A DNA stretch of 64,000 nucleotides from Clostridiaceae bacterium (GCA_016296885.1 JAEDHT010000006.1:150-64149); one strand, 5' to 3'; counted from the stretch's first letter, positions 1,212-53,930 are shown. A program made the numbers and translations. The notes: generated from the sequence alone by a model not told the origin.

Positions 1212-1367
1212 ATCATTCGCATATCGAAAAATATTTCCGACACACATTCCTCCTTATCCAATTTATTTTTACGTATTGCGTATTTTTCACACATAATATA
1301 TAATAGTACAATACAAAGAAAATTTCAACTGTTTTTTCTACTAACAATCAATTTGAGGTACAGAAAT

Positions 1368-5009: not shown

Positions 5010-5966
5010 TCAATTAACCTTGTTAACAATCTTACCCTCAACAAAACCCTTAATATTGTTATAAACTATATCTATCAGACGTTCTCTCGTCTCTACAGGG
5101 GCCCATGCCACATGAGGGGTAAATATAATATTCTTGGCATTTTTGAGAGGGCAGTCACCTGTCATAGGCTCTTTTTGAAGAACATCCACAGCAGCTCCGG
5201 CGATTTCACCGCTGTTAAGTGCATACGCAAGCGCCTCTTCGTTTACAGTGCCACCACGTGATGTATTGATAAATATGCAGTTGCTTTTACATTTCGAAAA
5301 TGCTTCCTTGTTAAATACCTCTTTGGTATCATCAGTGAGTGGACAATGCACGGTGATAAAATCTGAGCGAGTAAGAAGCTCATCAAATCCCACATATTCC
5401 ACATCGTTATCTTTAATAGTTCTTGTTGTTGCAATCACATTCATTCCAAATGCTTTGGCAATGCGTGCTACTCTCCTGCCGATACTTCCAAACCCAAATA
5501 TACCAATTGTCTTACCCCCAAGCTCTTGCATAGAGTTATCTAATATGCAGAATATATCACTATTTTCCCATTTGCCATCTTTCACACGAATATCAAATGA
5601 TGCCACATTATTTGTGTAATACAAAATATAAGCGAACACTTGCTGTGCAACACTTGATGTAGAATATTCGCCGGCGTTGCACACTGCTATACCTCTTTCT
5701 CTTGCAGCCTTGATATCAATATTATTGTATCCTGTTGCCAACAATGTAATTAATTTAAGATTTGGCATTTTGCTGATTGTATCAGCAGTAATAACCGTCT
5801 TGTTGCATACAAGTATATCAGCATCATTAGCATAACTAGACACAAGGCTAGAATCAAGATTGTCAAACATAACAACCTCGCCGAAATCCTTAAATCTATC
5901 TAATAGAGTACTATCACCTGATGTTACAGTTTTAGTATCGGTGAAGGCAATTTTCATTCTGTTCAT
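5010..5966 (-). CDS. D-isomer-specific 2-hydroxyacid dehydrogenase (glycerate/hydroxypyruvate reductase-like)
   Basis: NAD-binding GIFGFGSIGRRVA. The HCPLTDDT..NTSRGG..D.L.....AAVDV..EP...PHVAW pattern is typical of the family. Start placed at MNRMKIAF (CAT at 5964-5966) after an AGGAAA RBS. Confidence 0.85.
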   Translation of the reverse strand: MNRMKIAFTDTKTVTSGDSTLLDRFKDFGEVVMFDNLDSSLVSSYANDADILVCNKTVITADTISKMPNLKLITLLATGYNNIDIKAARERGIAVCNAGEYSTSSVAQQVFAYILYYTNNVASFDIRVKDGKWENSDIFCILDNSMQELGGKTIGIFGFGSIGRRVARIAKAFGMNVIATTRTIKDNDVEYVGFDELLTRSDFITVHCPLTDDTKEVFNKEAFSKCKSNCIFINTSRGGTVNEEALAYALNSGEIAGAAVDVLQKEPMTGDCPLKNAKNIIFTPHVAWAPVETRERLIDIVYNNIKGFVEGKIVNKVN

Positions 5967-6081
5967 AATTTTTTTCCTTTCATAATGGTTATAAAATGTT
6001 ATAAATATGTTGTTGTATTGCACAAAAAAACCTGTATCAGCCCAAAAAAATGTTTAAATAAACAATTTTTCTGTCACAGGT

Positions 6082-6110
6082 TTGACATTAGTGACTTTTG
6101 GTTATATAAT
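6082..6110 (+). promoter_or_regulatory. consensus sigma-A-type promoter
   Basis: TTGACA (6082-6087), 17-nt spacer, TATAAT (6105-6110), about 50 nt upstream of the ATG at 6164. Confidence 0.6.
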
Positions 6111-6163
6111 AACCCTGCTGTTGATTAATAAACAAGTATCAAATTGAAAGAAGGTTCTAAAAA

Positions 6164-6454
6164 ATGCCAAAAGCAAAAAAGACAGACTCTACAACAGTAG
6201 CTAATGAAGTAGCAGTAGCAACTCCCGCAAAGAAAACTACAAGAAAGCCATCAGCCAAGGTTGAATTGTTTATCGAGCACAATGGTATTCAGGCTTCAAC
6301 AGATGTTATTGCAAAGAAAATTAAAGCTGAATACGCCGAAAAAGAGGGCGCAGCTGTTATTAAAACATTGAAAATTTATGTAAAGCCAGAAGAGAACACA
6401 GCATATTATGTTGTAAATGGTGAAGAAGAGTGCAAACTCGAAGGAATATTCTAA
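6164..6454 (+). CDS. small conserved-looking hypothetical protein (Lys/Ala-rich N-terminus, beta-rich C-terminus)
   Basis: 96-aa ORF with GAAAGAAGG RBS, its own consensus promoter and its own terminator. Confidence 0.6.
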   Translation: MPKAKKTDSTTVANEVAVATPAKKTTRKPSAKVELFIEHNGIQASTDVIAKKIKAEYAEKEGAAVIKTLKIYVKPEENTAYYVVNGEEECKLEGIF

Positions 6455-6494
6455 TAATATTCTAATTTAAAGAAAATATATCTCAATTAGAGTT

Positions 6495-6527
6495 ATCGCC
6501 GAAGTTTTTCGGCGATATTTCTTTTTA
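6495..6527 (+). terminator. rho-independent terminator
   Basis: ATCGCCGAA (6495-6503) / TTCGGCGAT (6508-6516) hairpin, followed by a T-rich run. Confidence 0.8.
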
Positions 6528-6802
6528 TCTATATCACAAATTCGAACCGGTGGAAACAATAATGGTTTAACCTATAGCGACTTATGGAAAATAGATATCT
6601 AAAATTCATTTCAAAGCTATGACTATTATTCACATATGATATATTACGCCATTTTGTTTGTTTAGTCAATGTTTTTCTATCTTGTGCAGCCACCGACCAT
6701 ACCAATATCTTTCCTGCAAAAAAACGCTTTACAACGCTTGTTGCTTGTGATAGAATATGTATGTGTTATATTAAACATATTATTTTATGGAGGTATAATC
6801 TT

Positions 6803-7057
6803 ATGAAAAAAATATTAGCTATTTTGGCATCATGTACATTAATTTTTACTACTATGGCAACATCCTATGCTCTCGATCCTATCGTTAGCCCTGTTGCTCC
6901 TGTGTATTCTGACTCTGACTCAGCAACAGACTCAGACACACATATAAATACATCACCAAACGCACCAATAACAGGCGATATTACTCCTGTGCTTCTGCTC
7001 CTTGCAGGTGGCTCCGCTGTTTGTGCATTAATTAACAGAAAAAAGACTGACAAATAA
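6803..7057 (+). CDS. 84-aa secreted protein with C-terminal sortase sorting signal (APITG + hydrophobic + RKKTDK)
   Basis: GGAGG RBS 8 nt upstream of the ATG at 6803. Signal peptide MKKILAILASCTLIFTTMATSYA. C-terminus NAPITGDITPVLLLLAGGSAVCALINRKKTDK. Confidence 0.6.
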   Translation: MKKILAILASCTLIFTTMATSYALDPIVSPVAPVYSDSDSATDSDTHINTSPNAPITGDITPVLLLLAGGSAVCALINRKKTDK

Positions 7058-7105
7058 CTCATTTTTTCTGTAAAAGCTTTATTTTCCTGAAGGGATGTAA
7101 TTATA

Positions 7106-7906
7106 ATGAATAATAAAAAATCAAAATCGCTTGTCGTTAAGCGTATTTTAAGCATAGCTTTAACGGCAAGCTTGGTCGCTTTGAGCTCTTTTGGGTTCTC
7201 CGGATGCAAATCTAATCAAACTACAGACTTTGTAAGCGATGTAAACACCGTATCTCTCGATCCTATTGTGGACACCAGCGGGGTTGATTCTGACGACACA
7301 GTGGTGCTTGTAGAAAACCCTATAAACTTCGAGGATCTACAGTCAAAGAACAGTGACCTTTATGCATGGATATATATTCCAAATACTTCTGTTGATTATC
7401 CAATAGCACAAAGTGCACCGGATGTAGATGATTCTTTCTATCTCCATCATGGCATCGATAAGAGCTACTTCTTTGCAGGCACTATCTATACTGAAAAGGC
7501 AAACAGTAAGGATTTTACCGACAAAAACACTCTGCTTTATGGCCACAATATGCTCGATGGCTCTATGTTTACAACAATCCACAAATTCGAGGATGAAAAG
7601 TTTTTTAACGAGAATGAATATATCTACATATACACACCAGGCCATATATTAACTTACAGAATCTTTGCTGCGTATGAATCTGATGATAGACATATCCTTA
7701 ATTCATACGATTTCTCAAAAGATGACGTCTGGGAAGAATATGTAAAGCAAGTATCTAAACCTGAATCAATCTATACTTGCAACTATCGTGATGTCGGTTT
7801 GTCCACAGACAACACAATCATCACACTCAGCACCTGCACAAGCTACAGATCAAACAACAGATACCTTGTGCAAGCATATCTATATAAGGACACACCCACA
7901 AAGTAA
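7106..7906 (+). CDS. class B sortase (paralog 1, lipobox-type N-terminus)
   Basis: NSDLYAWIYIPNTSVDYPIAQS, LLYGHNMLDGSMFTTIHKF and the catalytic TLSTC motif. The N-terminus ends in ...SSFGFSGC, which fits a lipoprotein lipobox. Confidence 0.85.
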   Translation: MNNKKSKSLVVKRILSIALTASLVALSSFGFSGCKSNQTTDFVSDVNTVSLDPIVDTSGVDSDDTVVLVENPINFEDLQSKNSDLYAWIYIPNTSVDYPIAQSAPDVDDSFYLHHGIDKSYFFAGTIYTEKANSKDFTDKNTLLYGHNMLDGSMFTTIHKFEDEKFFNENEYIYIYTPGHILTYRIFAAYESDDRHILNSYDFSKDDVWEEYVKQVSKPESIYTCNYRDVGLSTDNTIITLSTCTSYRSNNRYLVQAYLYKDTPTK

Positions 7907-7938
7907 TTTTTCAGATTACTTGAAAGGAAGTGGAAACA

Positions 7939-8751
7939 ATGGGTAATAACAGTAAAAATGCTAAAAAGCAAGCAAATAAAACAAACGCCAGAGTTTCAGT
8001 GGTTGTAGCATGCATATTGATAGCGTGTTGTGTTGGATTTTTTGGCTATAATGGAATAAAAAACAAACAAACTGAGGATTTTATCGACAGCGTAAAGAAC
8101 ACCTCTATGGCTCCCCTGAATGATATAAATTCTTCTGTTAACAGTGATATTAACGTTACATTTCAAAACCCTATTAACTTTGAAGATTTGCAAGAAAAAA
8201 ACAGTGATTTATACTCTTGGATATATGTTCCAAACACATCTGTAGATTATCCGGTAGCACAAAGTGCTGATGATGGCTTTTATCTGCATCGTGGCACCGA
8301 CAAAAGCTACTATTTTGCAGGCACTATCTACACAGAGAGCACCTATAACAACACTGACTACAACGACAGAAACACTGTGCTGTATGGTCACAATATGCTT
8401 GACGGCTCTATGTTTGCCACATTGCATAAGTTTGAGGATGAAGAGTTTTTCAACGATAATGAGTATTTCTATATTTACACTCCAAACCGTATCCTCACAT
8501 ACAGAATATTTGCTGCATATGAGGTGGATGATAGACATATTCTGAAAACTCATGACTTTTCAGATGATAATGTGTGGTCTGAATATCTTAATGAGATATC
8601 CAATCCCCAATCTGATTACACTTGTAACTCACGTGACATAGAACTATCTCTGGATAGCAAAATTGTAACTTTGAGCACCTGCACAAACTTTAGAGCCAAT
8701 GACAGATATATTGTCCAGGGGGTGCTTATAGATGAACAAACTACAGTTTAA
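7939..8751 (+). CDS. class B sortase (paralog 2, N-terminal TM anchor)
   Basis: Same motifs as paralog 1 (NSDLYSWIYVPNTSVDYPVAQS, VLYGHNMLDGSMF, TLSTC). ATG at 7939 lies 8 nt after an AAAGGAAG RBS. Confidence 0.85.
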   Translation: MGNNSKNAKKQANKTNARVSVVVACILIACCVGFFGYNGIKNKQTEDFIDSVKNTSMAPLNDINSSVNSDINVTFQNPINFEDLQEKNSDLYSWIYVPNTSVDYPVAQSADDGFYLHRGTDKSYYFAGTIYTESTYNNTDYNDRNTVLYGHNMLDGSMFATLHKFEDEEFFNDNEYFYIYTPNRILTYRIFAAYEVDDRHILKTHDFSDDNVWSEYLNEISNPQSDYTCNSRDIELSLDSKIVTLSTCTNFRANDRYIVQGVLIDEQTTV

Positions 8752-10282
8752 TGATTTAAACAAAACCACAGATAATTTAAAGAAAACCACGGACAACGAC
8801 GATCCTATACCACATTCTGAAAGGAAAGTAGTCAAAGTCAGGGTAGTAAAAAGAGTGACAAATTCTGAACCATCGCAAAGTCAAGCACGAATTGCAAAAG
8901 CAATGCAATTATCGTCAGATTCGCAAGCTATAGAAGATTATGAAGGTTATGTTTTCGAATCTTCGCATCACCATAGACACGAAAATAGCTCCAGGCACAG
9001 CCTGGGGCACAATTCAGTAAACAGCTTGGAAAACAGCTCAGAGAATAGTCCAGAGAAAAACTCAGGGAACAGAGAGCAAAAATCTGATTCGACTACATTG
9101 CTAAGAGGCAATGTTCAAGGTGCAACGTATGAAGAATCAGCACAGAGAGCCTCTAGTGACTATGATGATTATATATATTATAAAGAGCGCTATGACCTAT
9201 CGAAACGTGGCAAGCACAAACACAGACACAATGATAAAAATGATGATAAAAACGGCAAAGTAAAACACAAGCTTCTTAGGTCTGTTTTGATTATAATGTT
9301 GTCTTTGATAGTACTGGTTGTAGGTTGCTTTTTTTCACTAAGACAAATTGGTAAGGATGCTTTGTTAAAACAAAGTGAAAAAATAGAAACTCCTGATCTT
9401 GGCGGAGAGGTAATCTCTGAAAACAATGGTCGTATCATTAAATATAATGGTCACACCTATGAATATAACGAAAATATTACGAACATACTATTCATAGGGG
9501 TTGATAAAACCGAATTAGGTGTTATTGACGGTGTTGTTGGAAAAGGTGGACAAGCCGACGCAATTTATCTTGCAGCCATAGATATTGAAGAAGGGAGCAT
9601 TACTACCTTTGCTGTGCCTCGTGAAACAATGGCAGATATAGGTGTCTATTCAAGCACAGGCTCGTATTTGGGCATAGAAAACAAACAAATATGTCTGTCG
9701 TATGCATATGGAGATGGAAAAATAGAAAGCTGTGATAATCTTATAAGCTCACTTGAAAAAGTGTTCTTCGGAATAGAAATACAGTCATTTATTGCCATGG
9801 ACCTTATGGGCATCAACGCCATGAACGACAATATCGGAGGCGTGGATGTTACGCTGGACTATGACACCGTAATTAAAGGTTATGAATTTAAGGCAGGGGT
9901 TCCTGTTCACCTTGCAGGTAGTATGGCAGAGGCTTTTGTGAGAACAAGAAGTGCAACAGAGGTAGATGCTAATATCAAGCGTATGGAAAGACAAAAAATT
10001 TACCTTAACGCATACATTGAAAAAGCTGTTAAAATGACAAAAGAGGATATAAAAACACCTTTAAATATTTACAATGCTGCAAGCGATTATTCCATAACCA
10101 GTATAGATGCTGCATCAGTAACATATCTTGCCACACGCCTTATAGACAAAAATATTACTTTCCCAAATATTATGCGTCTGCCGGGCGAGGTAAAAATGGG
10201 AGAAGAATACGCAGAATTCTATGTAAATGAGCGAGAATTCTATGAAATGTTTCTAGAAACATATTACAACCAAATTAATTGA
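8732..10282 (+). CDS. LytR-CpsA-Psr (LCP) family cell-wall polymer ligase with long low-complexity N-terminal extension
   Basis: ILFIGVDKT...GQADAIYLAAID...FAVPRETMADI...AFVRTRS is an LCP signature. One TM segment (LLRSVLIIMLSLIVLVVGCFF). The start overlaps the sortase-2 stop by 20 nt. Confidence 0.8.
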   Translation: MNKLQFNDLNKTTDNLKKTTDNDDPIPHSERKVVKVRVVKRVTNSEPSQSQARIAKAMQLSSDSQAIEDYEGYVFESSHHHRHENSSRHSLGHNSVNSLENSSENSPEKNSGNREQKSDSTTLLRGNVQGATYEESAQRASSDYDDYIYYKERYDLSKRGKHKHRHNDKNDDKNGKVKHKLLRSVLIIMLSLIVLVVGCFFSLRQIGKDALLKQSEKIETPDLGGEVISENNGRIIKYNGHTYEYNENITNILFIGVDKTELGVIDGVVGKGGQADAIYLAAIDIEEGSITTFAVPRETMADIGVYSSTGSYLGIENKQICLSYAYGDGKIESCDNLISSLEKVFFGIEIQSFIAMDLMGINAMNDNIGGVDVTLDYDTVIKGYEFKAGVPVHLAGSMAEAFVRTRSATEVDANIKRMERQKIYLNAYIEKAVKMTKEDIKTPLNIYNAASDYSITSIDAASVTYLATRLIDKNITFPNIMRLPGEVKMGEEYAEFYVNEREFYEMFLETYYNQIN

Positions 10283-10400
10283 TTTATACTATCAATACGG
10301 TCTATTATTGTTGTAAAATTATCAAGTGTTTTGCTTGACTTATTTTAAAAATACGTGTACAATAATGATATATTAAGCATTGAAAGGATTAACTAAAACT

Positions 10401-10715
10401 ATGATGAATGATTTAGAAATGGATTTTATCAGCTTGCTTGACGATGACGGCACTGAATATCAATTTGAAATTCTTGATGTAATAAACGAAGACGGAAGAA
10501 AGTTTTATGCTCTAAGCCCTGTTATTGATGACGAAAATCAGGTTATCGAAGATAGTGGAGAGTATTACATCATGGAGGAAATCATCGAAGAAGGTGATGA
10601 CTCTCCTATGCTGGTTGATCTTGAGGATGAGAAGCTTCTTGATCACCTTGCAGAGATTTTCGAGGCTCATTTCGACGAAATGTTCGAATACGACGAGGAC
10701 GAGTCTGAGGAGTAA
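10401..10715 (+). CDS. DUF1292 family protein (YrzB-like)
   Basis: Small acidic protein: MMNDLEMDFISLLDDDGTEYQFEILDVINEDGRKFYAL...EEI..D. This is the typical DUF1292 pattern. Confidence 0.7.
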   Translation: MMNDLEMDFISLLDDDGTEYQFEILDVINEDGRKFYALSPVIDDENQVIEDSGEYYIMEEIIEEGDDSPMLVDLEDEKLLDHLAEIFEAHFDEMFEYDEDESEE

Positions 10716-10726
10716 TTTTGTTCTCT

Positions 10727-10975
10727 TTCTGCCCGATTCGCTTATTGCATTGATATAACCCTACAACTTATTTATAGGGAGCCGGACTCCTGAGATTGTG
10801 TGCAGACCTCCCGATTTTTCGGAAGAAGGGAGCCTGAGGTCAAGGGGAGGCACCCACCTGTCGATTTAGTAGGCAGGTTGTAAAAAATGCGCTACGGTCG
10901 GGCGGAATAAACATACTTTCCAAAACAAAAAGCCTTACACAGCGCTCGGAAATATCCGGGCGTTTTTCTATAAAT
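10727..10975 (+). ncRNA. candidate structured leader or small RNA with intrinsic terminator (class unresolved)
   Basis: A GC-rich island in AT-rich intergenic DNA. Closing helix CTGCCCGA (10729-10736) / TCGGGCGG (10898-10905). Nested hairpins at 10759-10779, 10805-10841 and 10856-10878. Terminator stem 10943-10962 plus T5, ending 20-30 nt before the next start codon. Confidence 0.35.
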
Positions 10976-10996
10976 TATATAAATGGGATGATAAAA

Positions 10997-13213
10997 ATGA
11001 ACAAATTAAGAAAAATCATTGCAATAGCTCTTGTTGCATCTGTGTTAGGAACAGCCGGTGTGTCTGCATCTGCTACTTCTTTTGAAGCAGGCGAAACATC
11101 ACACGCTGTAGTAAGCATTAAGAACAGTGATGCAGAAGTCAAGACAAAAACTATTGCTACAGAAAGCAACGAAGTTATCATCAGCGAAGACTCAATAACA
11201 ATCGATGGCGAAAAAGACGAAAATGACTATGATATATACATATTAAAAGGTGAATATAGCTCAGCCCTAAAGATTGTTATTGATAGTGAAACAAAGAGAG
11301 ATATAAACATTCAGCTTGAAGAATTTACTGTAGATAAAACAAACGAAGAAGCTTTGATTTCATCAGATGCATCTTGCAACATCAATATATCTCTTGCAGG
11401 CAGTGATAAAAGCACAATTAAATCATCAGCAGAAAAAGTAACAGCCTTAATCTCTGCTCCAAACGCAGCGCTCAATATACAGCCAGATATATATAGAGGT
11501 CACAATTCTACCCTCAGTGTAATCTCCACATCAGAAACAGCAGACGAAAACACCTCTGTAGGATGTATCACTGTTAAAAAACTGACATTTGTAGCAGGTG
11601 CAAAAGTAAATTTTGAGAGCAAAGCAGCTGCTGCCATAGTATCTGAAGCAGTTACTGTCAATCCAAATGTAGAAATAAATCTGGATGTAGCTTGTAGCAG
11701 AAAGATTTTCACAAACGACTATAAACAGCAAGGTGGTAAGGTTTCCTTTGGCGAAGAGAATACCGGATCACTCTTCTATCTTAACTATATAAAAGAAACA
11801 AACCACTTTGCAAATTTTAGAGTAATCAGTGGCTCTCTCACAGGCGTTACAGATGGCTATTGCGTTGAGGGCGATGTAGTAAATCAAGCATCAATTATTG
11901 GCGGAACAATACGCTTAGAGTCTAGCTCAAAACCGGTATTCTACGCTAGAAGAAAGTTTCAGGATTTCTTTATCAACGGCGGAAATGTTGAGCTGTTAAC
12001 ATCTGCAGCTCACGCAGTAGAATGTAATACAACTGAGTTTATAAAGTTCAGTAACGAATACGCTGTTATACTTAACGACGGTAATACACACATCACCTGC
12101 TCACAATATCCATTCGCAAGGAAGAATGACGACGGAGAGTTTGAGAGAATGGACGTATACAATCTTTTAAACCAAAAGGTATATCAGCATCACATAGATT
12201 TAGAGAGTGCACAAGGACATAATCTTGCTGAGTTGCTCGAAAAGAACAGTAACGATTTAGGTAGAGTTCTCTATAATGATGTACTTGTAAGCACAAACAA
12301 AAAATTTGTGCTTGAACTTGATGACCTCTATCTTTGGCTTAGTGAGCCACAAGAGGGCGACAACGGTGCACTTATATTCACTAATATTGGATTGACCTTT
12401 AAACACGTTGGAAAGTTTTCTGATTATTTGGAAAATATAGACACCGTTCCCGCTGAAATGGCATATGACAACTCATCATTGTTTGTATTTTTTGATAAAA
12501 GAAACGGCATAAATGGAACTGATAGCGTAACACAAATTACCGACTACAAGCTTCCTGCTAAAATAGATGTGCCTGAAAAAGACGAAATATATGATGATAA
12601 ATTCTTGGGTTACTATGATTCTACCGACTGGACAAAGAAGTATTATGATGAAAATGGTAATCTTGTAGCTGATGCAGATATCAGAGAAAATACATTTTTA
12701 GTTGCACAGTGGCAAACTGATGTTAAGGTTGAGGCCGATCATATGGATGTCCACTTTGTTCTCAATGGTGGCACTTGCGACTTCCATAGCAACTTTATGG
12801 ACAATGATTTTGACTCTAATATACCACTTAGAGAAGATTTCGTAATTCCTGATGCCGTAAAAGAAGGCAAAACATTCCTCGGATGGTATCTTACACCTGA
12901 TGGCAGTGGCGAAAGAATTTTAAATTCTGCTATGCTAATTGACTTGCTCGGCACAGAGAATGTTACATTGTATGCTATTTGGGAGGGCGAAACCTCCACT
13001 AACGCAAAATATGGCGACGCCAACTGTGATGGCGATATAAATATGCAAGATGTAACCACAATTCAGAAAGTTATCGCAGAGCTTATTACTCCGGAAAAGG
13101 CCGGAGATAATTATGCTATAAATTCTGATGTTACACATGATGACAAAACAACAATGGAAGATGTTGTTCTCATTCAGAAATATTTGGCTAAGCTTGTTGA
13201 TAGCCTTGATTGA
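10997..13213 (+). CDS. secreted protein of unknown function with Listeria-Bacteroides repeat and C-terminal dockerin
   Basis: Signal peptide MNKLRKIIAIALVASVLGTAGVSASA (alternative start at 10988). VHFVLNGGT...GKTFLGWY...TLYAIW repeat. Dockerin duplicated EF-hand-like tail GDANCDGDINMQDVTTIQ...DVTHDDKTTMEDVVLIQKYL. Confidence 0.8.
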   Translation: MNKLRKIIAIALVASVLGTAGVSASATSFEAGETSHAVVSIKNSDAEVKTKTIATESNEVIISEDSITIDGEKDENDYDIYILKGEYSSALKIVIDSETKRDINIQLEEFTVDKTNEEALISSDASCNINISLAGSDKSTIKSSAEKVTALISAPNAALNIQPDIYRGHNSTLSVISTSETADENTSVGCITVKKLTFVAGAKVNFESKAAAAIVSEAVTVNPNVEINLDVACSRKIFTNDYKQQGGKVSFGEENTGSLFYLNYIKETNHFANFRVISGSLTGVTDGYCVEGDVVNQASIIGGTIRLESSSKPVFYARRKFQDFFINGGNVELLTSAAHAVECNTTEFIKFSNEYAVILNDGNTHITCSQYPFARKNDDGEFERMDVYNLLNQKVYQHHIDLESAQGHNLAELLEKNSNDLGRVLYNDVLVSTNKKFVLELDDLYLWLSEPQEGDNGALIFTNIGLTFKHVGKFSDYLENIDTVPAEMAYDNSSLFVFFDKRNGINGTDSVTQITDYKLPAKIDVPEKDEIYDDKFLGYYDSTDWTKKYYDENGNLVADADIRENTFLVAQWQTDVKVEADHMDVHFVLNGGTCDFHSNFMDNDFDSNIPLREDFVIPDAVKEGKTFLGWYLTPDGSGERILNSAMLIDLLGTENVTLYAIWEGETSTNAKYGDANCDGDINMQDVTTIQKVIAELITPEKAGDNYAINSDVTHDDKTTMEDVVLIQKYLAKLVDSLD

Positions 13214-13259: not shown

Positions 13260-13694
13260 ATGTTTAAGAAATTTGGAATTGTTATTTTTTCTGTTTTGAT
13301 CGCAACTTCACTGCTCGCAGGATGTGGTGATAAAGACGACAAAGATGTAAACAGCAATGTATCCTCCGGAACAACAAGTGAGGTAAGCTCTGATAGTTCA
13401 GCTCCTGATATAAACACAGACACTATCGAAATCGGCGGTGGTGATGACAAGGTTCTCATCCCTGATATTGTCGTTACACCGGGAGTAGAAGATAGCACAG
13501 AATCAAAGTCTGATGCTCCTTCTTCAGGAGATTCCGGAAACTCAGATACTTCATCAAAGAGCACCTCTTCCACAAGCTCAAAGGGCTCTGATAGCTCATC
13601 AAGCAAAGCTTCATCAAATTCTGAATCTGATTCAGAGTACTATGATGATTGGGAAGGCGACAATGTTATAGATTTCTCTGAGCTTTTAGGATAA
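13260..13694 (+). CDS. Ser/Asp-rich lipoprotein
   Basis: MFKKFGIVIFSVLIATSLLAGC lipobox, then a low-complexity S/D/T-rich body. AAAGGA RBS 10 nt upstream of the ATG at 13260. Confidence 0.7.
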   Translation: MFKKFGIVIFSVLIATSLLAGCGDKDDKDVNSNVSSGTTSEVSSDSSAPDINTDTIEIGGGDDKVLIPDIVVTPGVEDSTESKSDAPSSGDSGNSDTSSKSTSSTSSKGSDSSSSKASSNSESDSEYYDDWEGDNVIDFSELLG

Positions 13695-13713
13695 TCGAAT
13701 TGAGGTACACACT

Positions 13714-14418
13714 GTGGGCATATATAAAATAGCGGATTTGTATATTGATATCGACCCAAAATATGAATATACTAAAGAAAGATTAAAAGACTATATTTCT
13801 AATGATGAGGTCGCACCGGATTTTTCGGTGCGACTCACCAGGGATTTGATTTTGCAAGAAGTTTCTTATGCTCCGGGGCTTCCGGAGTCATGCTATGAAA
13901 GCACAGCAATCTATAGGCAGATTTGTCTTAAAATACTTGAAAAATACAATGGTTTCTTTTTCCATTGCTCTGCCCTCTCGGTAGATAATCAAGCGTATTT
14001 GTTTACAGCACAAAGTGGCACCGGCAAATCTACACATACACGTATGTGGCGTGAGGTTTTTGGTGATAAGGTCGTTATGATTAACGATGACAAACCACTT
14101 GTTCGCCTTATAGATGGAAAATTCTATGTATATGGTACTCCATGGGATGGAAAACACGCTATTAGCAACAACATAAAAGTGCCTCTTAAGGCTATTTGCT
14201 TTTTGCATCGTGGCGAGGAAAATAAAATCTCTAAGGTGGTTGGAATAGACCATTTGCATGATATTCTAAATCAAACTATTATGCCAAAGAGTTCTACTTC
14301 TATGATAAATCTGCTTGACATCTTGGAAAAAATGCTCACCGATATTCCTACCTATGAGTTATACTGCAACATTTCACAGGAAGCAGCAAAAGTTTCATAT
14401 AAGGGTATGATTGAATAA
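13714..14418 (+). CDS. HPr-kinase-C-like P-loop protein (HprK-related, RiPP-cluster type)
   Basis: FFHCSALSVDNQAYLFTAQSGTGKSTHT...INDD...YGTPWDGKH resembles the HprK-like kinases and ATP-binding proteins found next to PqqD proteins. GTG start after a GAGG RBS. Confidence 0.55.
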   Translation: MGIYKIADLYIDIDPKYEYTKERLKDYISNDEVAPDFSVRLTRDLILQEVSYAPGLPESCYESTAIYRQICLKILEKYNGFFFHCSALSVDNQAYLFTAQSGTGKSTHTRMWREVFGDKVVMINDDKPLVRLIDGKFYVYGTPWDGKHAISNNIKVPLKAICFLHRGEENKISKVVGIDHLHDILNQTIMPKSSTSMINLLDILEKMLTDIPTYELYCNISQEAAKVSYKGMIE

Positions 14419-14436
14419 ACGAAAGGACTGATAAAA

Positions 14437-14706
14437 GTGATAAAGTCTAAAGAAGGACTTCTCGTAAGAAAATTTGGGGACAAATACGTAATCGTGGCTA
14501 TTGACGATATGGCAGATGAGTTTCATAGCCTTATAACATTGAATGACACAGGTCTCTTTATTTGGAAGCTTATCGAGAAAGGTACCGATGCTGATAAAAT
14601 TTTGGAAAATATTCTTTCTACATATGATATTGATGAGGAAACAGCAAAAGCCGATATACAAAACTTTATTGAAAGTGCAAGAAAAGCAGGTATATTAGAT
14701 GAGTGA
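14437..14706 (+). CDS. PqqD family protein (RiPP recognition element-like)
   Basis: 89 aa. The pattern LLVRKFGDKYVIVA...SLITLNDTGLFIWKLIEKGTDADKILENILSTYDIDEETAKADIQNFIESARKAGIL is typical of PqqD. Confidence 0.7.
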   Translation: MIKSKEGLLVRKFGDKYVIVAIDDMADEFHSLITLNDTGLFIWKLIEKGTDADKILENILSTYDIDEETAKADIQNFIESARKAGILDE

Positions 14707-15160
14707 TCTGCTATGCATAAAGGATATAATTGAACGTGACGGTGAGTACATCGGAACACCGCATGGTGATAGTATGTGGCCTTTGTTGCATAATAAACGT
14801 GACACTATACACGTTGTAAAAAAGACAGATAAGCTAAACAAACATGATGTAGCATTATACATACGCAAAAATGGCCAATATGTGCTTCATCGCATAATGA
14901 AAATTGAAAATAACAGCTACACCATGTGTGGCGATAGTCAATATGTTTTGGAGAAGGGCATACAGGAAGATCAGATTATCGGGGTTTTAAAAAGCTTTTA
15001 TAGAAATGACAGATATTGTGACACAAATAAAATACGTTACAAAATTTACGTCTTTATATGGTGTCTTTCCCCAAAGGTCAGAAGATTTCTAATGCACTTT
15101 GTTGCATATGCAGAAAACAAAAAGAACAAGATTAAAGCAAAAGGAAAAGCCAAACGATGA
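14699..15160 (+). CDS. S24/S26 family serine peptidase-like protein
   Basis: GDSMWPLL motif followed by the ...HDVALYIRKNGQYVLHRI... core. The start overlaps the PqqD stop (ATGAGTGA). Confidence 0.6.
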   Translation: MSDLLCIKDIIERDGEYIGTPHGDSMWPLLHNKRDTIHVVKKTDKLNKHDVALYIRKNGQYVLHRIMKIENNSYTMCGDSQYVLEKGIQEDQIIGVLKSFYRNDRYCDTNKIRYKIYVFIWCLSPKVRRFLMHFVAYAENKKNKIKAKGKAKR

Positions 15161-15537
15161 AGAAATGTGACTATTGTGGCAAACAAATATCATATAGTGA
15201 ACAATATTGCTGTGATGAATGTAGCCAGAAAGCATTGAAATATTATCACTTTGAAAGAAAATATAAAAATATTTTTGGTTTTTTCAATATTATCTGTGCG
15301 ATATCCGTTATGGCTGCTTGCTTCCTATCTCTGCTCTTGTCTGCTAAAATTGGATATATAGTATCAGGAGCAGCTCTCACGCTTTTGGGAGCGGCTGTGG
15401 TTGCTTTTCCAATGCCTACTCTAAATCAGATAAAAAAGCAAAAAATTCAAAAAGCGGTGTTTTCTACCAGAATTATTGGTGGGATAATTTCCTTTTCAGG
15501 TATTTGTTTGTTAATTGTAGGCTTGTTTGTCGTTTAA
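15157..15537 (+). CDS. zinc-ribbon N-terminus + 3-4 TM membrane protein
   Basis: CDYCGKQI...CCDEC N-terminal Cys4, then hydrophobic segments. ATGA start/stop overlap with the peptidase gene. Confidence 0.6.
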   Translation: MKKCDYCGKQISYSEQYCCDECSQKALKYYHFERKYKNIFGFFNIICAISVMAACFLSLLLSAKIGYIVSGAALTLLGAAVVAFPMPTLNQIKKQKIQKAVFSTRIIGGIISFSGICLLIVGLFVV

Positions 15538-15599
15538 ATGAATAATTGATCTCCTTTTTGTCAATGATAAGATTGAAAAAACAAAAAGGAGGTTTTTTT

Positions 15600-15830
15600 A
15601 TGCTTGATAAATTAGCACTTACATTATTGATCATCGGTGGTATCAACTGGGGATCAGTAGGTATATTTCAATTTGACCTTGTAGCATGGATATGCGGTGG
15701 TCAAACAGGCATTGTAAGCAGAATAATCTACACTCTTGTTGGATTATCTGCTATCTGGTGTATTTCTCTTTTATTTAGAGATACAAGCGATGAACATGTC
15801 GATCGACTTGAAACAGGAAGCACAATGTAA
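15600..15830 (+). CDS. DUF378 family membrane protein
   Basis: LLIIGGINWGSVGIFQFDLVAWICGG...IIYTLVGLSAIW is the DUF378 signature. AAGGAGG RBS 7 nt upstream of the ATG at 15600. Confidence 0.7.
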   Translation: MLDKLALTLLIIGGINWGSVGIFQFDLVAWICGGQTGIVSRIIYTLVGLSAIWCISLLFRDTSDEHVDRLETGSTM

Positions 15831-15864: not shown

Positions 15865-15909
15865 GAACGCTCTGTGATAAAATTTGTGTCACAGAGTGTT
15901 CCTCTTTTT
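15865..15909 (+). terminator. rho-independent terminator
   Basis: 13-bp stem GAACGCTCTGTGA (15865-15877) / TCACAGAGTGTTC (15889-15901) with one G-T pair, followed by CTCTTTTT. Confidence 0.75.
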
Positions 15910-20408: not shown

Positions 20409-22088
20409 ATGACTATAAAAAACAGAGATAGAGAAACAATTAAATGGATTATATCGGTCAGTAAAAAGTTTTTGCCACATATGATTATTCTAACCATAAT
20501 AACTATGGTTTCTTCCTGTTTTGGCGCTATATTTGCATTATTATCAAAAAACTTTATAAACGCCGCTACAGCAAGAGATAAAGATGAGATGATAATGACA
20601 TTTATAGAAATTGTGTCATTGGTACTGATACTTCTTTTGATAAGGATAGTGATAATGTACCTTCGTGATTACATATCATCTCGACTTAATATAGCGTATA
20701 AAACATATTTGTTTGATAATATTATAAGAAAAAAATATGCATTAATTTCACCTTATCACAGTGGAGATCTACTAAATAGAATAACAAGTGACATCGGTGT
20801 TGCATCCGGCACTGTAGCCACCTTTATACCATCAGTTGGTGCGTTAATAACGCAAATGGTGTCTGCTTTAATCGTTATCTATTCTATAGATTCCACGTTT
20901 GCAATTGTTTTTGTTGTGGGTGGTATATTAGTATTCCTTTTAAGCAGAATATTCAAAAATTATTCTAAAAAGCTTTATAAGCAAGGACAAGAAACAGACG
21001 GCAAAACACGCTCTTTTATACAAGAAGCAATAGAAAATATGCTTGTAATAAAAACTTTTTCGGGCGAAGATAAAATAACTAAAAAAGCCGAAGAATTTCA
21101 AGAAGAAAACTATAAAATAAAAGTTAAACGTCGTTATTTGGCAATATTCAGAAAAACCAGCATGAACCTTTTGATGCAGGGTGGATTTATATATGCGCTC
21201 ACATGGGGTGTAATAGGAATATATAATGGAATGGACTATGGTACAGTGATTGCACTTACACAGCTTGTAGGTCAGGTTCAAACACCTTTTTCCGGTCTTT
21301 CCTCCTTGGTTTCAAGTTGGTTTAACCTATCAGCATCCGTAGAAAGAATACTCGATATATGCAACCTGAGTGAAGAAAGTAAAGATGGTAAGCTGATGAC
21401 TAAAGAAGACGTAACAAAAGTCTATAACGACCTTGATAAAATTGAATTTAAAAACATTTCATTTAAATATGATAGAAACAGCATATTTGAAGATGCTAAT
21501 CTCACAATCAACAAAGGCGATTTTGTTACAATAATGGGAATATCAGGAATTGGTAAAAGCACTCTGATGAAATTGCTCTTAGGAGTTTATGACTGCGAGG
21601 GTGAAATCAAATTTAAGCTCAAAAATGAAGATTTAAATGCAAACTATTGTACAAGACCTCTATTCTCATATGTTCCTCAGGGCAATATGCTGTTATCAGG
21701 CACAATAAGAGAAAATATTGTTTTTACAAGTGAAAATATTACCGAAGATGATATTAACGAAGCAATACGTCTAAGCTGTGCAGACGACTTTATCAAAGAT
21801 TTCCCGCAAGGTCTTGATACAGTAATTGGCGAAAAGGGTACCGGACTCTCAGAAGGTCAAACTCAACGTATTGCAATCGCACGTGCGCTTGTTACTAAGG
21901 CACCGATAATTCTTCTCGACGAAGCCACCTCAGCATTAGATGAATACACAGAGGACAAGCTTCTCAAAAATCTGAAAAATCTAAACAATATGACCTGCAT
22001 AATAATAAGCCACAAGAGAGCTGCACTAGACATCTGCAACAGACACATCGCCATAGAAGATAAGATAATTGTTGAGGTTGAGGATTAA
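20409..22088 (+). CDS. ABC exporter, fused permease/ATPase (type I, homodimeric half-transporter)
   Basis: About 6 TM segments, then Walker A GISGIGKST, signature LSEGQTQR and Walker B ILLDEATSALD. Confidence 0.9.
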   Translation: MTIKNRDRETIKWIISVSKKFLPHMIILTIITMVSSCFGAIFALLSKNFINAATARDKDEMIMTFIEIVSLVLILLLIRIVIMYLRDYISSRLNIAYKTYLFDNIIRKKYALISPYHSGDLLNRITSDIGVASGTVATFIPSVGALITQMVSALIVIYSIDSTFAIVFVVGGILVFLLSRIFKNYSKKLYKQGQETDGKTRSFIQEAIENMLVIKTFSGEDKITKKAEEFQEENYKIKVKRRYLAIFRKTSMNLLMQGGFIYALTWGVIGIYNGMDYGTVIALTQLVGQVQTPFSGLSSLVSSWFNLSASVERILDICNLSEESKDGKLMTKEDVTKVYNDLDKIEFKNISFKYDRNSIFEDANLTINKGDFVTIMGISGIGKSTLMKLLLGVYDCEGEIKFKLKNEDLNANYCTRPLFSYVPQGNMLLSGTIRENIVFTSENITEDDINEAIRLSCADDFIKDFPQGLDTVIGEKGTGLSEGQTQRIAIARALVTKAPIILLDEATSALDEYTEDKLLKNLKNLNNMTCIIISHKRAALDICNRHIAIEDKIIVEVED

Positions 22089-23230
22089 TGAACCTTTATA
22101 ATGAAGTAAAAGAATGTCTTGCTGATATATTACCGATTAGAGATAAAATTCACTCTAATCCGGAATTAAGCTTTGAAGAACATAATACTACAAAAATAAT
22201 TAAAGATTTTCTTTTGGATATTGGTATTGATGTAATAGACCTCGGTACTGATACCGGTGTGGTGGGTGTGTTGCGCTGTAAAAATAAAAACTCAAAAAAA
22301 ATTGCTCTGCGTGCTGATATAGATGCCATTGCCACAGATAATGGAGCTATGCATTTATGCGGACATGACTATCACACTTCTGCGCTTTTGTGCTGTGCTA
22401 AATATGCATCACAGAATATTGATAAAATCAAAAATAATGCCATATTTATTTTTCAGCCGGCAGAAGAAACCACCACTGGTGCTAAATATCTCATAAACAA
22501 TGGTCTTTGGGATAAGTTTCCATTTGCACCCGATATGATGTTCGGTATACATAATCGCCCGGAGATGGCAGATGGTACTGTGAGAGTGCAAAGTGGTCCA
22601 TTGATGTCGTCTAAAAGCGATTTTACAATTACTGTAAAGGGAAAGACAGGTCATAGCGGTTCGCCACATCAGTGTATAGACCCTATAACCGCTAGTGCAA
22701 GTATAGTGCAGGCAGTGCAAACTATAATCAGTAGAAATACTGATCCTTTCCAACCATGTGTATGTGCCATATGTTCCATTCACGGTGGCTCTCCCTCAAA
22801 CTTTGCCCCTGAAAGCGTGACAATGACCGGAAGCATACGCTCTCTCGACAAAGATACTCACATTAATTGTGAAAGAAGACTAAGAGAAATTGTAGCTAAC
22901 ACTTGTAGCGCTTATGGTTGCACTTGCGATATTGATATAAAATCACTTGTGCCGGTGCTAAATAACACAGAAGCGATGACAGAAAAAGCTTTAAAAATAG
23001 CTCAAAACGCTGTATCAGATGATAAAATTGTGACCTCTACCCCATGCATGGGCAGTGAAGATTTTTCAGTATATGGCGAGTATATTCCGTATTATTTTTA
23101 TTGGATAGGCAGTGGCAAGGCAGGATATGATAATGCACCTTGGCATAGTGCCGACTTTTCAATTGGAGAAGAATTTTTGCCTACGGCATCTTCTATATTC
23201 GTAAGCGCCCTGATGACAGAGCTTAATTAA
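22088..23230 (+). CDS. M20D family amidohydrolase (N-acyl-amino-acid amidohydrolase-like)
   Basis: IHSNPELSFEE..T, LRADIDA, CGHD.H, FQPAEE and GKTGHSGSPH. The start overlaps the ABC stop (TAATG). Confidence 0.85.
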   Translation: MNLYNEVKECLADILPIRDKIHSNPELSFEEHNTTKIIKDFLLDIGIDVIDLGTDTGVVGVLRCKNKNSKKIALRADIDAIATDNGAMHLCGHDYHTSALLCCAKYASQNIDKIKNNAIFIFQPAEETTTGAKYLINNGLWDKFPFAPDMMFGIHNRPEMADGTVRVQSGPLMSSKSDFTITVKGKTGHSGSPHQCIDPITASASIVQAVQTIISRNTDPFQPCVCAICSIHGGSPSNFAPESVTMTGSIRSLDKDTHINCERRLREIVANTCSAYGCTCDIDIKSLVPVLNNTEAMTEKALKIAQNAVSDDKIVTSTPCMGSEDFSVYGEYIPYYFYWIGSGKAGYDNAPWHSADFSIGEEFLPTASSIFVSALMTELN

Positions 23231-23251
23231 TAAAAAATTTTTGGTGATCGT

Positions 23252-24136
23252 ATGAAAATAATTACTGTAAATGACTATGTAAAACAAAAGTACGGCAAAA
23301 AAATGTATAAGCTTGCGCTTAGTTGTTCAACCACCTGCCCGAACAGAGATGGAACTATCGGCACAGGTGGTTGTATTTTTTGCCCAAATGGTGCATCTGA
23401 CGGATTCGCACAGCTTGCAGATGTGCCTATATCCGAGCAAATTGAAAAAGCTAAAGCTCTGGTGGAATCGAAGAATAAAGGCGGTGGGTATATTGCTTAT
23501 TTTCAGACCTTCACCATCACTTATGCCCCGATATCACATTTACGCAAAGTCTTCTTTGAGACCATAAACAGAAACGATATAGACATACTTTCAATGGCCA
23601 CACGTCCTGATTGTCTGGATGATGATGTGTTATCTCTGATAGCAGAGCTAAACAAAATCAAACCTGTATGGGTTGAGCTTGGACTTCAAACTATCCACAA
23701 AAAGACTGCAGATTACATAAGGCGTGGATATGAGCTTGATGTATATGACCATGCAATTAAGAAATTAAAAGACATTGGTGTGCATACAATAGTTCATCTT
23801 ATAATCGGACTTCCCGGCGAGAGTGAACAGGATATGATATCTTCTGCAAAATATGTAGGTCAAAGTGGCGCTGATGGCATCAAGCTTCAGCTTTTGCACA
23901 TACTAAGAGGATGCGACCTGGAAAACGAATATAACAACGGTAAAATTCACGTGCTCGAACTTGAAGAATACACCAATATTCTATGTAAATGTATAGCTGT
24001 CTTGCCCGAAGATATTGTTATACATCGTCTTACAGGTGATGGTGCCAAATCTCAACTGATAGCTCCTCTCTGGAGTGGTGACAAGAAGCGTGTTATGAAC
24101 TATGTAAACAGAGCTATAGCCGAATATAAACCTTAA
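23252..24136 (+). CDS. TIGR01212 (YhcC-like) radical SAM protein
   Basis: CPNRDGTIGTGGCIFC cluster and overall YhcC-like length and pattern. Confidence 0.8.
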   Translation: MKIITVNDYVKQKYGKKMYKLALSCSTTCPNRDGTIGTGGCIFCPNGASDGFAQLADVPISEQIEKAKALVESKNKGGGYIAYFQTFTITYAPISHLRKVFFETINRNDIDILSMATRPDCLDDDVLSLIAELNKIKPVWVELGLQTIHKKTADYIRRGYELDVYDHAIKKLKDIGVHTIVHLIIGLPGESEQDMISSAKYVGQSGADGIKLQLLHILRGCDLENEYNNGKIHVLELEEYTNILCKCIAVLPEDIVIHRLTGDGAKSQLIAPLWSGDKKRVMNYVNRAIAEYKP

Positions 24137-31014: not shown

Positions 31015-31150
31015 AGTAATACCCCCTGTAATTACAGCTGTTTCAAACATAAACCTGAAACACCTTATAATTCATTTAATCTTACCATACATTATAATCT
31101 ATTTATTATAGAATAGTCAAGCCTAACTCTAAATTTATATTACATTTAGA

Positions 31151-31190
31151 CAAAAAACAGCCTCAAGGCTTTTTATAACCTTGAGGCTGT
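31151..31190 (-). terminator. rho-independent terminator (minus strand)
   Basis: Perfect 12-bp stem ACAGCCTCAAGG (31158-31169) / CCTTGAGGCTGT (31179-31190). The minus-strand transcript continues into TTTTTT (complement of 31152-31157). Confidence 0.85.
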
Positions 31191-31218
31191 TCATTATGAA
31201 ATCAGTTTATGAAAAATC

Positions 31219-31374
31219 TTATCTCAACGCACTGAAAGCTCTGAATGAGTTATCAACATCCACTACAGTATCTGTGTCAGATGTTTCAGAATCTGTATCG
31301 CCAGATGCTGCCATAACGTCTTGTGCGAGAAGCATTTCATCAATTAATTCCGGAGTATTATATAATTTTTTCAT
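31219..31374 (-). CDS. 51-aa acidic small protein (absent from the supplied ORF track)
   Basis: GGAGG (complement of 31385-31389) lies 10 nt upstream of the ATG (31374). It translates to MKKLYNTPELIDEMLLAQDVMAASGDTDSETSDTDTVVDVDNSFRAFSALR*. It starts 21 nt after the stop of the 1673-aa gene and ends just before the terminator. Confidence 0.5.
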   Translation of the reverse strand: MKKLYNTPELIDEMLLAQDVMAASGDTDSETSDTDTVVDVDNSFRAFSALR

Positions 31375-31395
31375 TGTAAAAATACCTCCTTAAAA

Positions 31396-50136: not shown

Positions 50137-50174
50137 CTCTATCCCACCCATCTTATAAAGGTCATTAACATAAA

Positions 50175-53862: not shown

Positions 53863-53930
53863 GGCAATATCCTCCAATTTTATTTTTAAAAATTTTTTCC
53901 TTTTTTAAGTTTACATCTGTTTATTTAAAT

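Follow-up and report, generated by a model that had tools for sequence, protein, structure and literature searches.

At positions 13,260 to 15,830 of a 64,000-nucleotide (nt) stretch of DNA from a Clostridiaceae bacterium (GCA_016296885.1, JAEDHT010000006.1:150-64149; this whole stretch is referred to as the window), six small genes are packed head to tail. They encode a Ser-rich lipoprotein, a P-loop protein of the ScmC family, a PqqD-type protein, an S26-like peptidase, a zinc-ribbon membrane protein and a DUF378 membrane protein (Table 1). What would such a set of enzymes act on? The initial annotation had described an orphan cassette of the four genes from the P-loop protein to the zinc-ribbon protein, lacking both a core enzyme for ribosomally synthesized peptides with post-translational modifications (RiPPs) and a visible precursor. 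It considered either a new RiPP-like class or a module acting on an exported protein. The comparative data favor both alternatives, as parts of one system. We give about even odds (probability roughly 0.5) to the reading that the six genes form one transcription unit and are one lineage's variant of a large, apparently undescribed RiPP-like maturation system found in Clostridia of the gut and rumen. More tentatively, and with somewhat less confidence than even, we propose that cassettes of ScmC-like, PqqD and S26-like genes are a new RiPP class, widespread in these Clostridia, that also tailors core-like C-terminal tags on surface proteins carrying a lipid, a signal anchor or a dockerin, and of which the window would keep only the protein-borne, Sec-exported substrate.

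Results

A conserved unit of six genes

Re-reading of the open reading frames (ORFs) confirmed the initially annotated gene coordinates and junctions. The lipoprotein stop codon is followed after 19 nt by the GTG start of the ScmC-like gene at 13714, and 18 nt separate the latter from the GTG start of the PqqD gene at 14437. The PqqD and S26-like genes share a ATGAGTGA overlap at 14699/14706, the S26-like and zinc-ribbon genes an ATGA overlap at 15157/15160. Each start of the unit has a purine-rich ribosome-binding site, and the ATG of the DUF378 gene at 15600 is preceded by AAAGGAGG. The only strong terminator of the region begins at 15865. The genes are closely packed, with stops that overlap starts and with ribosome-binding sites, and no terminator interrupts them before this position; these are signs of a single transcription unit.

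The six genes and their terminator recur in three relatives, i.e., in locus L098, a 96%-identical strain with the same gene order as the window, in L004 (69% identity) and in L084 (63% identity). In all three, the DUF378 gene has the same position and is followed by a hairpin with a T-run or T-rich stretch behind it. The block in L084 lies on the other side of ribF, has no dockerin gene and is preceded by its own promoter-like site. Because L084 keeps the block without the dockerin gene and at another place relative to ribF, the conserved module extends from the lipoprotein to DUF378. The unit is hence larger than the four genes first proposed, with the lipoprotein and DUF378 added and the terminator at its end, and the dockerin protein, which had been mentioned together with the cassette, is not part of it. 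It had also been noted that the dockerin and lipoprotein genes lie upstream of the cassette with no intervening terminator, and indeed we found none in the 46-nt gap between these two genes. The four-gene order itself is kept in the window, L098, L004 and L084, but beyond these close relatives the common core is ScmC plus PqqD.

From the comparison of the window with L098, we calculated ratios of nonsynonymous to synonymous substitution rates (dN/dS) of 0.06 for the ScmC-like, 0.03 for the PqqD, 0.06 for the S26-like, 0.10 for the zinc-ribbon and 0.20 for the lipoprotein gene. With values of 0.03–0.20 for the five genes scored, the six-gene unit is under purifying selection. A role in anti-phage defence was also considered and dropped, since PADLOC models matched none of the six proteins of the unit.

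DUF378 matched PF04070 with E 6e-27. The zinc-ribbon protein gave a weak DUF2116 match; its initial description as a Cys4 zinc ribbon fused to transmembrane helices was borne out, with an N-terminal ribbon CDYCG...YCCDEC, predicted to be cytoplasmic, followed by three hydrophobic helices. Its gene is restricted to modules of the window type, i.e., L004, L084 and L098 besides the window.

The P-loop protein, PqqD and the S26-like peptidase

The P-loop protein contains the motifs SGTGKST (Walker A), FFHCSAL and YGTPWDGKH. SGTGKST, H84-x-S86 and N124-D-D-K-P are invariant, and H-x-S and NDD are HprK-like. An AlphaFold model with a predicted local distance difference test score (pLDDT) of 91.5 was matched by Foldseek to the ATP-dependent phosphoenolpyruvate carboxykinase (ATP-PEPCK) 1j3b (E 3.5e-6) and to HprK/P 1kkl (E 5e-6); a comparison of the ScmC profile with PDB chain sequences returned nothing meaningful. 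The family assignment comes from PF27840 'ScmC', which was precomputed on the 96%-identical protein P0001 and on most of the 120 homologues listed, and which is not part of our local Pfam copy. Altogether 6,091 homologues were found, all unnamed and all from metagenome-assembled genomes (MAGs) of Clostridia. From the model, the protein is predicted to adopt a PEPCK/HprK fold outside the Hpr_kinase_C family. The HprK-like label of the initial annotation hence holds for fold and invariant motifs but not for membership in PF07475.

PqqD was assigned without ambiguity and as initially annotated: its 89 residues score 64.3 bits with PF05402, above the gathering threshold of 23.4 (E 1.3e-17). The best sub-threshold NCBIfam matches are models of the lasso peptide B1 protein. 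From its sequence, the protein is predicted to bind peptides.

The third enzyme, with the motif HGDSMWP, had been annotated as an S24/S26 peptidase. Fold and motifs place it in clan SF, but its scores stay below family cutoffs: it had no Pfam match, and the weak NCBIfam matches were to SodX (sod_Ni_protease, 21 vs 63), the archaeal signal peptidase (sigpep_I_arch, 18.6 vs 51.85) and SipW. For the AlphaFold model (pLDDT 93.6), the top Foldseek matches were SpsB, SipA, SEC11 and LexA, with a probability of 1.0 and E-values of only 3e-3 to 1e-2. Ser25 (in G-x-S-M-x-P), L-His64-Arg65 and Gly78-Asp79 are invariant, and this pattern of boxes is that of S26 enzymes of the endoplasmic reticulum (ER)/SipW type, which work with a Ser/His pair. 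The N-terminus MSDLLCIKDIIERDGEYIG is non-hydrophobic and has no membrane anchor; hydrophobic or amphipathic helices are found at the C-terminal side only, where the protein is basic and helical. Since it has no N-terminal anchor, the peptidase should be cytoplasmic. A metagenome scan with this single protein returned one short contig.

Gene contexts of ScmC-like proteins

We collected 80 species-representative loci with the ScmC-like protein as query and added three loci found earlier, which gave a set of 83; the full collection comprises 99 loci. In the set of 83, PqqD directly follows the ScmC-like gene in 57 loci and an S26-like gene is present in 25. The corresponding counts in the full collection are 68/99 for PqqD and 36/99 for the S26-like gene. 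Three contexts recur. In the first, the ScmC-like gene stands alone, e.g., flanked by ThiF and DegV genes or followed by a YjeF_N gene. The second, in Christensenellaceae, is a ScmC–PqqD pair followed by DUF1846. The third is ScmC–PqqD–S26-like, after which come genes for a fused ABC exporter and for an NTP_transf_5 enzyme. Neither a lasso cyclase nor a B2 protease was among the recurrent neighbor families of the 83 loci.

Single loci deviate from these contexts. In L077, one ORF (259..1278) fuses a ScmC-like domain (residues 13-249) to PqqD (residues 256-338). In L067, an M20 peptidase gene lies directly upstream of the ScmC-like gene. L027, L032 and L040 (about 5500..11700) encode a lipoprotein, ScmC and PqqD and then, where the S26-like gene would be expected, capsule-type genes, i.e., Wzz/CpsC-like, CpsD-like, PHP phosphatase, APH-family kinase and LCP genes. 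The S26-like homologues in L094 (5001..5453) and L096 (5001..5480), 45-47% identical to the window protein, stand alone directly upstream of an aldehyde dehydrogenase gene, and there is no ScmC-like or PqqD gene near them.

Relatives encode a family of small precursor peptides

Small ORFs, one to five per locus, were found in 13 loci (L065, L068, L070, L075, L076, L081, L082, L090/L091, L097 and L099-L102). Their products share a conserved 24-residue leader and end in a short, variable, acidic core; L070 has five tandem copies. A profile of this family, which includes proteins P0160-P0279, retrieved at least 1,394 clusters of 30-60 residues with the consensus leader MKEKYETPEMEVVEFETEDIITTS and hypervariable cores of 6-22 residues. 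All of these clusters are unnamed, and neither Pfam nor NCBIfam has a model for any of them. In the reverse direction, we took as starting point peptide P0230, which the assembly collection indexes in 296 of its blocks; the genomic context was again ScmC–PqqD–S26-like–ABC–NTP_transf_5.

The precursors occurred only where an S26-like gene is present (13/36 vs 0/63 loci), and the same test in the unbiased species set gave 6/25 vs 0/55 (p=5.9e-4). Upstream of standalone ScmC-like genes we found one weak candidate only, in L046. Because the precursors are confined to loci with the S26-like gene, this co-occurrence points to the S26-like protein as their leader peptidase. By analogy with the established specificity of type I signal peptidases, the T-T-S preceding the core would fit the rule of small residues at -3/-1.

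Neither an ORF search nor a profile search detected a leader-type precursor in the window. The description as an orphan without precursor is hence valid for the window variant, but not for the cassette type, whose relatives carry a large precursor family.

An exported protein with a conserved tail precedes the cassette

In all four window-type loci (the window, L098, L004 and L084), the lipoprotein gene lies directly upstream of the ScmC-like gene. The protein starts with a signal peptide and an L-x-x-C lipobox, LLAGC (MFKKFGIVIFSVLIATSLLAGC), and this Cys-containing region is kept in L098, L004 and L084. It continues with a low-complexity spacer and an internal motif DDKVLIPDIVVTPG (13434..13475, residues about 59-72), which reads D[DE]K[VI][LI]G.DI[YI] in L004, L084 and P0281, an additional homologue obtained by searching a representative library. 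The Ser-rich, low-complexity body outside the tail drifts in these three proteins. Aside from the signal peptide region, the best-conserved portion is the tail. The last 22 residues, SDSEYYDDWEGDNVIDFSELLG, are identical in L098, and their counterparts are YYDDWEDDNVIYFSELLGG in L004, EYEEDDGLGDNIISFDDLL in L084 and YYDDWEGDNVIDFSDLINGNIGG in P0281. The family is rare, with about 4 homologue clusters among 1.84 billion representatives. The internal motif could be aligned with SDNVIDFGAFTTP of the L027-type lipoproteins, over 16 internal residues only and weakly (hhalign E 0.003, probability 11%).

An exported protein in this position is not limited to the window-type loci. When we considered co-directional genes ending within 60 nt upstream of the ScmC-like gene, 15/25 encoded proteins with a signal peptide and low-complexity sequence, compared with 70/493 in the background (p=4.5e-7, without phylogenetic correction). 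The anchors of these upstream proteins vary, i.e., they are lipoboxes, signal anchors or dockerins, and the layout of anchor, flexible spacer and short conserved C-terminal tail is constant. In seven species the tail reads [DE]G[WY]..[HKE]I[YFIV][QRK]P, and between its stop codon and the start of the ScmC-like gene there is either an overlap or no gap at all.

Some of the tails resemble the cores of the small peptides. Those of L065, L081 and L099 (all three 'IELPF[VI]PA'), of L076 and of L039 match small-peptide cores within the top 0.2-1.1% of 626 control C-termini, and three of these loci (L065, L076 and L081) themselves encode the peptide that the tail matches. L099 encodes the small precursor MKERYETPEMEIVEFETEDIITTSGNDDLPGMPIS and a 240-residue upstream protein that ends in ATIELPFVPAEGTE. 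Loci with a tail-bearing upstream protein often have no linked ABC exporter; L065, L076, L081 and L099 have both. Its frequent absence would make sense if Sec export replaces it.

From the conserved tight synteny, and by analogy with these other subfamilies, the lipoprotein is most likely the substrate or a display scaffold in the window.

Surroundings of the unit in the window

A Pfam scan of the approximately 45 window ORFs of at least 110 residues that we judged to be real genes revealed no lasso cyclase, B2 protease, SPASM radical S-adenosylmethionine (rSAM) enzyme, YcaO or LanM, so that the initial statement that no RiPP core enzyme is visible was confirmed. The sole rSAM gene (23252..24136) is of the Radical_SAM_C type; it closes a group downstream of ribF (20409..24136, +) that comprises an ABC exporter, an M20 peptidase and this rSAM protein.

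The ABC exporter and NTP_transf_5 families, which are cassette members in relatives, are dispersed in the window (Table 1). The window exporter shares 34% identity (E 6e-121) with the one that follows the S26-like gene in L074, a level of identity that is not specific, and the NTP_transf_5 protein is 26% identical (E 2e-32) to the cassette-linked one of L074. The NTP_transf_5 gene lies 34 kb from the cassette, beside the gene of a 174-residue membrane protein without a Pfam match (48428..48952, -).

Upstream of the unit, a full-length 6S RNA (SsrS) gene (10723..10912, +; Rfam RF00013, 58.3 bits) is located between the DUF1292 and dockerin genes. It is closed by a terminator at 10941..10964 that ends about 25-30 nt before the dockerin start codon. 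Because this terminator is so near, the dockerin gene may depend on read-through or on a promoter within the 6S gene. Further upstream, tandem sortase genes (7106..8751, +) directly precede, with slight overlap, an LCP gene (8732..10282). On the opposite strand, two Endonuclease I proteins (51808..53877 and 62223..63935, -) and a GH25 lysozyme that also has a ricin-type lectin domain (56151..57821, -) terminate in dockerins, which suggests that a cohesin scaffold displays the nucleases and the lysozyme. Multiple Flg_new (Listeria-Bacteroides) repeats occur in two giant proteins (2,243 and 1,675 residues; 24319..36423, -), one of which also has BspA-type leucine-rich repeats.

Table 1. Features of the six-gene unit and possible partners in the window
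Feature	Position	Strand	Basis or remark
Ser-rich lipoprotein (144 residues)	13260..13694	+	ORF, lipobox LLAGC
Conserved C-terminal tail of the lipoprotein, SDSEYYDDWEGDNVIDFSELLG	13626..13691	+	Alignment with relatives
ScmC-family P-loop protein (234 residues)	13714..14418	+	GTG start; predicted HprK/PEPCK fold
PqqD-type peptide-binding domain (predicted) / RiPP recognition element (89 residues)	14437..14706	+	GTG start; PF05402
S26-like (ER/SipW-type Ser/His) peptidase (153 residues), predicted cytoplasmic	14699..15160	+	Fold, motifs
Cys4 zinc-ribbon membrane protein	15157..15537	+	CDYCG...YCCDEC and three hydrophobic helices
DUF378 small membrane protein, last gene of the unit	15600..15830	+	PF04070
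Intrinsic terminator closing the unit	15865..15901	+	15-bp stem and T-run
Secreted dockerin/Flg_new-repeat protein	10997..13213	+	Probably co-transcribed; present in L098 and L004, absent from L084
Fused ABC exporter, possible dispersed partner	20409..22088	+	ABC_membrane and ABC_tran
NTP_transf_5 nucleotidyltransferase, possible dispersed partner	48979..50151	-	PF14907, E 1.7e-35

Discussion

A possible mechanism

What we observe is a conserved gene set, around which we infer the following steps. The PqqD domain would bind a short peptide segment and present it to the ScmC-family enzyme, which could phosphorylate the substrate at the expense of ATP, with the hydroxyl of a Ser or Thr as the most likely acceptor; activation of a carboxylate would be an alternative chemistry. 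The cytoplasmic S26-like Ser/His peptidase would then make a single specific cut. In the relatives, the substrates would be peptides of 30-50 residues in which the leader MKEKYETPEMEVVEFETEDIITTS precedes a short acidic core, cut after TTS, and the ABC exporter, often together with the NTP_transf_5 enzyme, would finish the pathway. In the window, where a small precursor and a linked exporter are both missing, the Ser-rich lipoprotein would be the substrate. It would be recognized via its C-terminal tail and modified in the cytoplasm prior to Sec export and lipidation, and the product would be a tailored C-terminal tag that a flexible spacer displays on the cell surface. Speculatively, the enzymes may be kept at the membrane, close to where export takes place, by the zinc-ribbon protein and DUF378. 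We put forward the kinase activity of the ScmC-like protein purely as a proposal, and likewise a phosphorylation of the Ser-rich region of the lipoprotein.

Several observations weigh against this interpretation. Cores such as EGGHDD have no Ser, Thr or Tyr, which speaks against a simple phosphorylation of core hydroxyls and leaves the target residue uncertain. The P-loop protein had no match in the local Pfam collection at E<=0.1, Hpr_kinase_C (PF07475) included, and with the TIGR04249 ScmC model it reached a sub-threshold 28.2 bits (cutoff 125). The ScmC-like gene stands alone in 26/83 loci, among them those of the about 55%-identical relatives in the ThiF/ScmC-like/DegV context. S26-like genes also occur alone, so that the enzymes need not act on a neighbor. 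As the proposed substrate is exported and the enzymes stay in the cytoplasm, the modification must take place before translocation. Finally, in a Smith-Waterman comparison with 114 small-peptide cores the window tail showed no significant similarity (p about 0.17), nor did the leader profile of the small peptides match it. On these grounds we dropped the idea that 'DNVIDFS' in the tail is a copy of 'EDVITTS' or of a core. Because the tail matches neither cores nor leader profile, the substrate role of the lipoprotein rests on analogy and on its synteny with the cassette in four or five related MAGs.

Alternative explanations

The cassette could be a working peptide-maturation system whose substrate in this genome is some other protein or a small peptide encoded at a distance. 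The lipoprotein would then have an accessory role, such as that of a surface receptor, an immunity factor or a decoy that mimics the product. Indeed, bona fide precursors in relatives lie up to 4 kb from the cassette and on either strand, no tail-bearing protein adjoins the cassette of L090, and the window has its ABC exporter and NTP_transf_5 genes elsewhere. Also, where tail and core occur together (L065, L076 and L081), a tail that mimics a core is as compatible with a decoy or receptor role as with that of a substrate. However, the searches for a leader-type peptide covered the whole window and found none, the upstream stop often overlaps the ScmC-like start in relatives, and in L084 the lipoprotein stays with the module despite the changed position of ribF and the missing dockerin gene. 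We regard an unlinked substrate as rather unlikely.

Alternatively, the unit might serve envelope biogenesis, with the S26-like protein as a SipW- or SipA-like processing enzyme or chaperone for the dockerin protein and the lipoprotein, regulated by the P-loop protein and PqqD. The top structural matches of the peptidase (SpsB, the pilus chaperone SipA and SEC11) would suit this role, as would the two sortases, the LCP protein, a VanW protein and several dockerin proteins encoded nearby, and the link of ScmC–PqqD to CpsC/D/B-like capsule genes in L027, L032 and L040. Signal peptidases act on the trans side of the membrane, and the S26-like protein, with neither signal peptide nor N-terminal anchor, cannot reach it. 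Moreover, the module of L084 has no linkage to sortase or LCP genes, and the S26-like gene co-occurs with small cytoplasmic leader peptides. This function appears improbable to us.

An equally small likelihood is assigned to a ScmC-like protein that is a small-molecule or housekeeping kinase with merely incidental neighbors. It could be argued from the conserved copies in ThiF/DegV and YjeF_N contexts, where the gene is standalone, and in the DUF1846 context of the ScmC–PqqD pair, and from PEPCK, a small-molecule enzyme, being among the closest solved structures. Against it stand the adjoining PqqD in more than two thirds of all loci, fused in L077, and the repeated linkage to precursors, exporter and peptidase.

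The idea of a decaying remnant of a lasso or rSAM RiPP cluster that has lost its core enzyme is largely refuted: the gene set of the relatives does resemble a Firmicutes lasso cluster minus cyclase and B2 (kinase-like protein, PqqD, ABC exporter and NTP_transf_5), with leaders that carry a Y-x-x-P-x-hydrophobic motif, which we take to be lasso-like, and one relative has an adjoining rSAM/SPASM enzyme, but frames and catalytic motifs are intact, the enzyme genes have dN/dS values of 0.03-0.10, the core-less architecture is found in dozens of species, and no cyclase-like neighbor recurs. The initial annotation had itself raised this doubt, together with the concern that profiles might fail to support the PqqD and HprK-like assignments. 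It is not refuted on either count, since the PqqD assignment is supported by a profile and the HprK-like one by fold comparison, rSAM adjacency is found in 1/25 species loci with an S26-like (S24) gene, and the genes are under purifying selection. The one rSAM-linked cassette seen, L068 (681..2342), encodes a small precursor (…AKYVEAELEIIAFDAEDVITTSCTGDAEPE) and then an rSAM/SPASM maturase whose stop overlaps the ScmC-like gene; this maturase scores below all NCBIfam cutoffs, with TIGR04463 as the best match.

Relation to known systems

Lasso clusters of the paeninodin/pseudomycoidin type consist of a precursor A, a cyclase C, a PqqD-like B1, a protease B2, an HPr-kinase homologue K, a nucleotidyltransferase N and an ABC exporter D. 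Like these Firmicutes clusters, the window cassette has a separate PqqD-type recognition protein, which scores best with B1 models, albeit below threshold, and a P-loop enzyme with a predicted HprK fold; the relatives add NTP_transf_5, a fused ABC exporter and precursor leaders with the Y-x-x-P-x-hydrophobic motif. In contrast, the window has no cyclase, no transglutaminase-like B2 and, beside the B1-like protein, no precursor whose leader has the YxxPxL motif. Instead of the B2 protease there is an S26-like serine peptidase, the P-loop enzyme is a member of ScmC (PF27840) and not of Hpr_kinase_C, and the likely substrate is a 144-residue lipoprotein instead of a small peptide. In the lasso systems, the target of the HPr-kinase homologue is the C-terminal Ser of the linear precursor, and the phosphate placed there receives a hexose from the nucleotidyltransferase (PMC8498205; PMC7533575). 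The Firmicutes lasso clusters are the nearest characterised chemistry.

The pairing of a ScmC-like P-loop protein with a PqqD homologue is shared with the SynChlorMet cassette (ScmC, ScmD, ScmE and ScmF; TIGR04248-04251), and most of the listed homologues of the window protein fall into PF27840. Unlike in SynChlorMet, the scores are far below the equivalog cutoffs (TIGR04249, 28 vs 125; TIGR04248, 26 vs 100), and neither the unit nor the window has the pair of SPASM rSAM enzymes ScmE and ScmF. To our knowledge, the SynChlorMet cassette, as described in TIGRFAMs, has no known function.

With regard to the peptidase, SipW processes TasA and TapA in Bacillus, SodX is the cytoplasmic maturation protease of nickel superoxide dismutase, and SipA is a streptococcal pilus chaperone. 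The window protein resembles these three in its S26 fold, in a gene position beside the presumed substrate and in its weak NCBIfam matches, and it has the Ser together with the His-Arg and GD(N/S) boxes found in SipW and in archaeal and ER-type enzymes. It differs from SipW and SipA in lacking a membrane anchor, and from all three in its sub-cutoff scores and in the linkage to PqqD and a P-loop enzyme, which is absent from those systems.

Borosins are RiPPs with the core at the C-terminus of a large protein, and other systems use follower recognition sequences. Common to these and to the window is a short conserved C-terminal segment of a larger polypeptide that is presumably recognized or modified. 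Unlike in borosins, the carrier here is a low-complexity surface protein exported via the Sec/lipoprotein route, and the putative enzymes comprise a P-loop protein guided by PqqD and a peptidase of the S26-like type.

Our search of the published literature for the gene combination, SynChlorMet/ScmC, the Pfam accessions and the peptide motifs returned lasso-peptide work and unrelated papers only, with no description of the cassette, and neither NCBIfam nor the local Pfam has a model that names the precursors, the cassette or the S26-like protein. That a RiPP recognition element guides maturation is a principle already known; there is a substantial chance that the cassettes constitute a new RiPP class with protein-borne substrates.

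If this holds true, Clostridia of the gut and rumen would possess, in a very common but so far unnamed set of genes, a new kind of maturation system for ribosomal peptides, formed by a ScmC-type enzyme with a kinase fold and a soluble, signal-peptidase-like leader protease. The function of the ScmC family (PF27840), and its long-unexplained pairing with PqqD, would become accessible to study for the first time. RiPP-type enzymes would moreover act on the tails of exported surface proteins, which would blur the border between natural-product biosynthesis and post-translational modification of proteins, and the products could matter in cell-surface recognition or signalling within gut communities.

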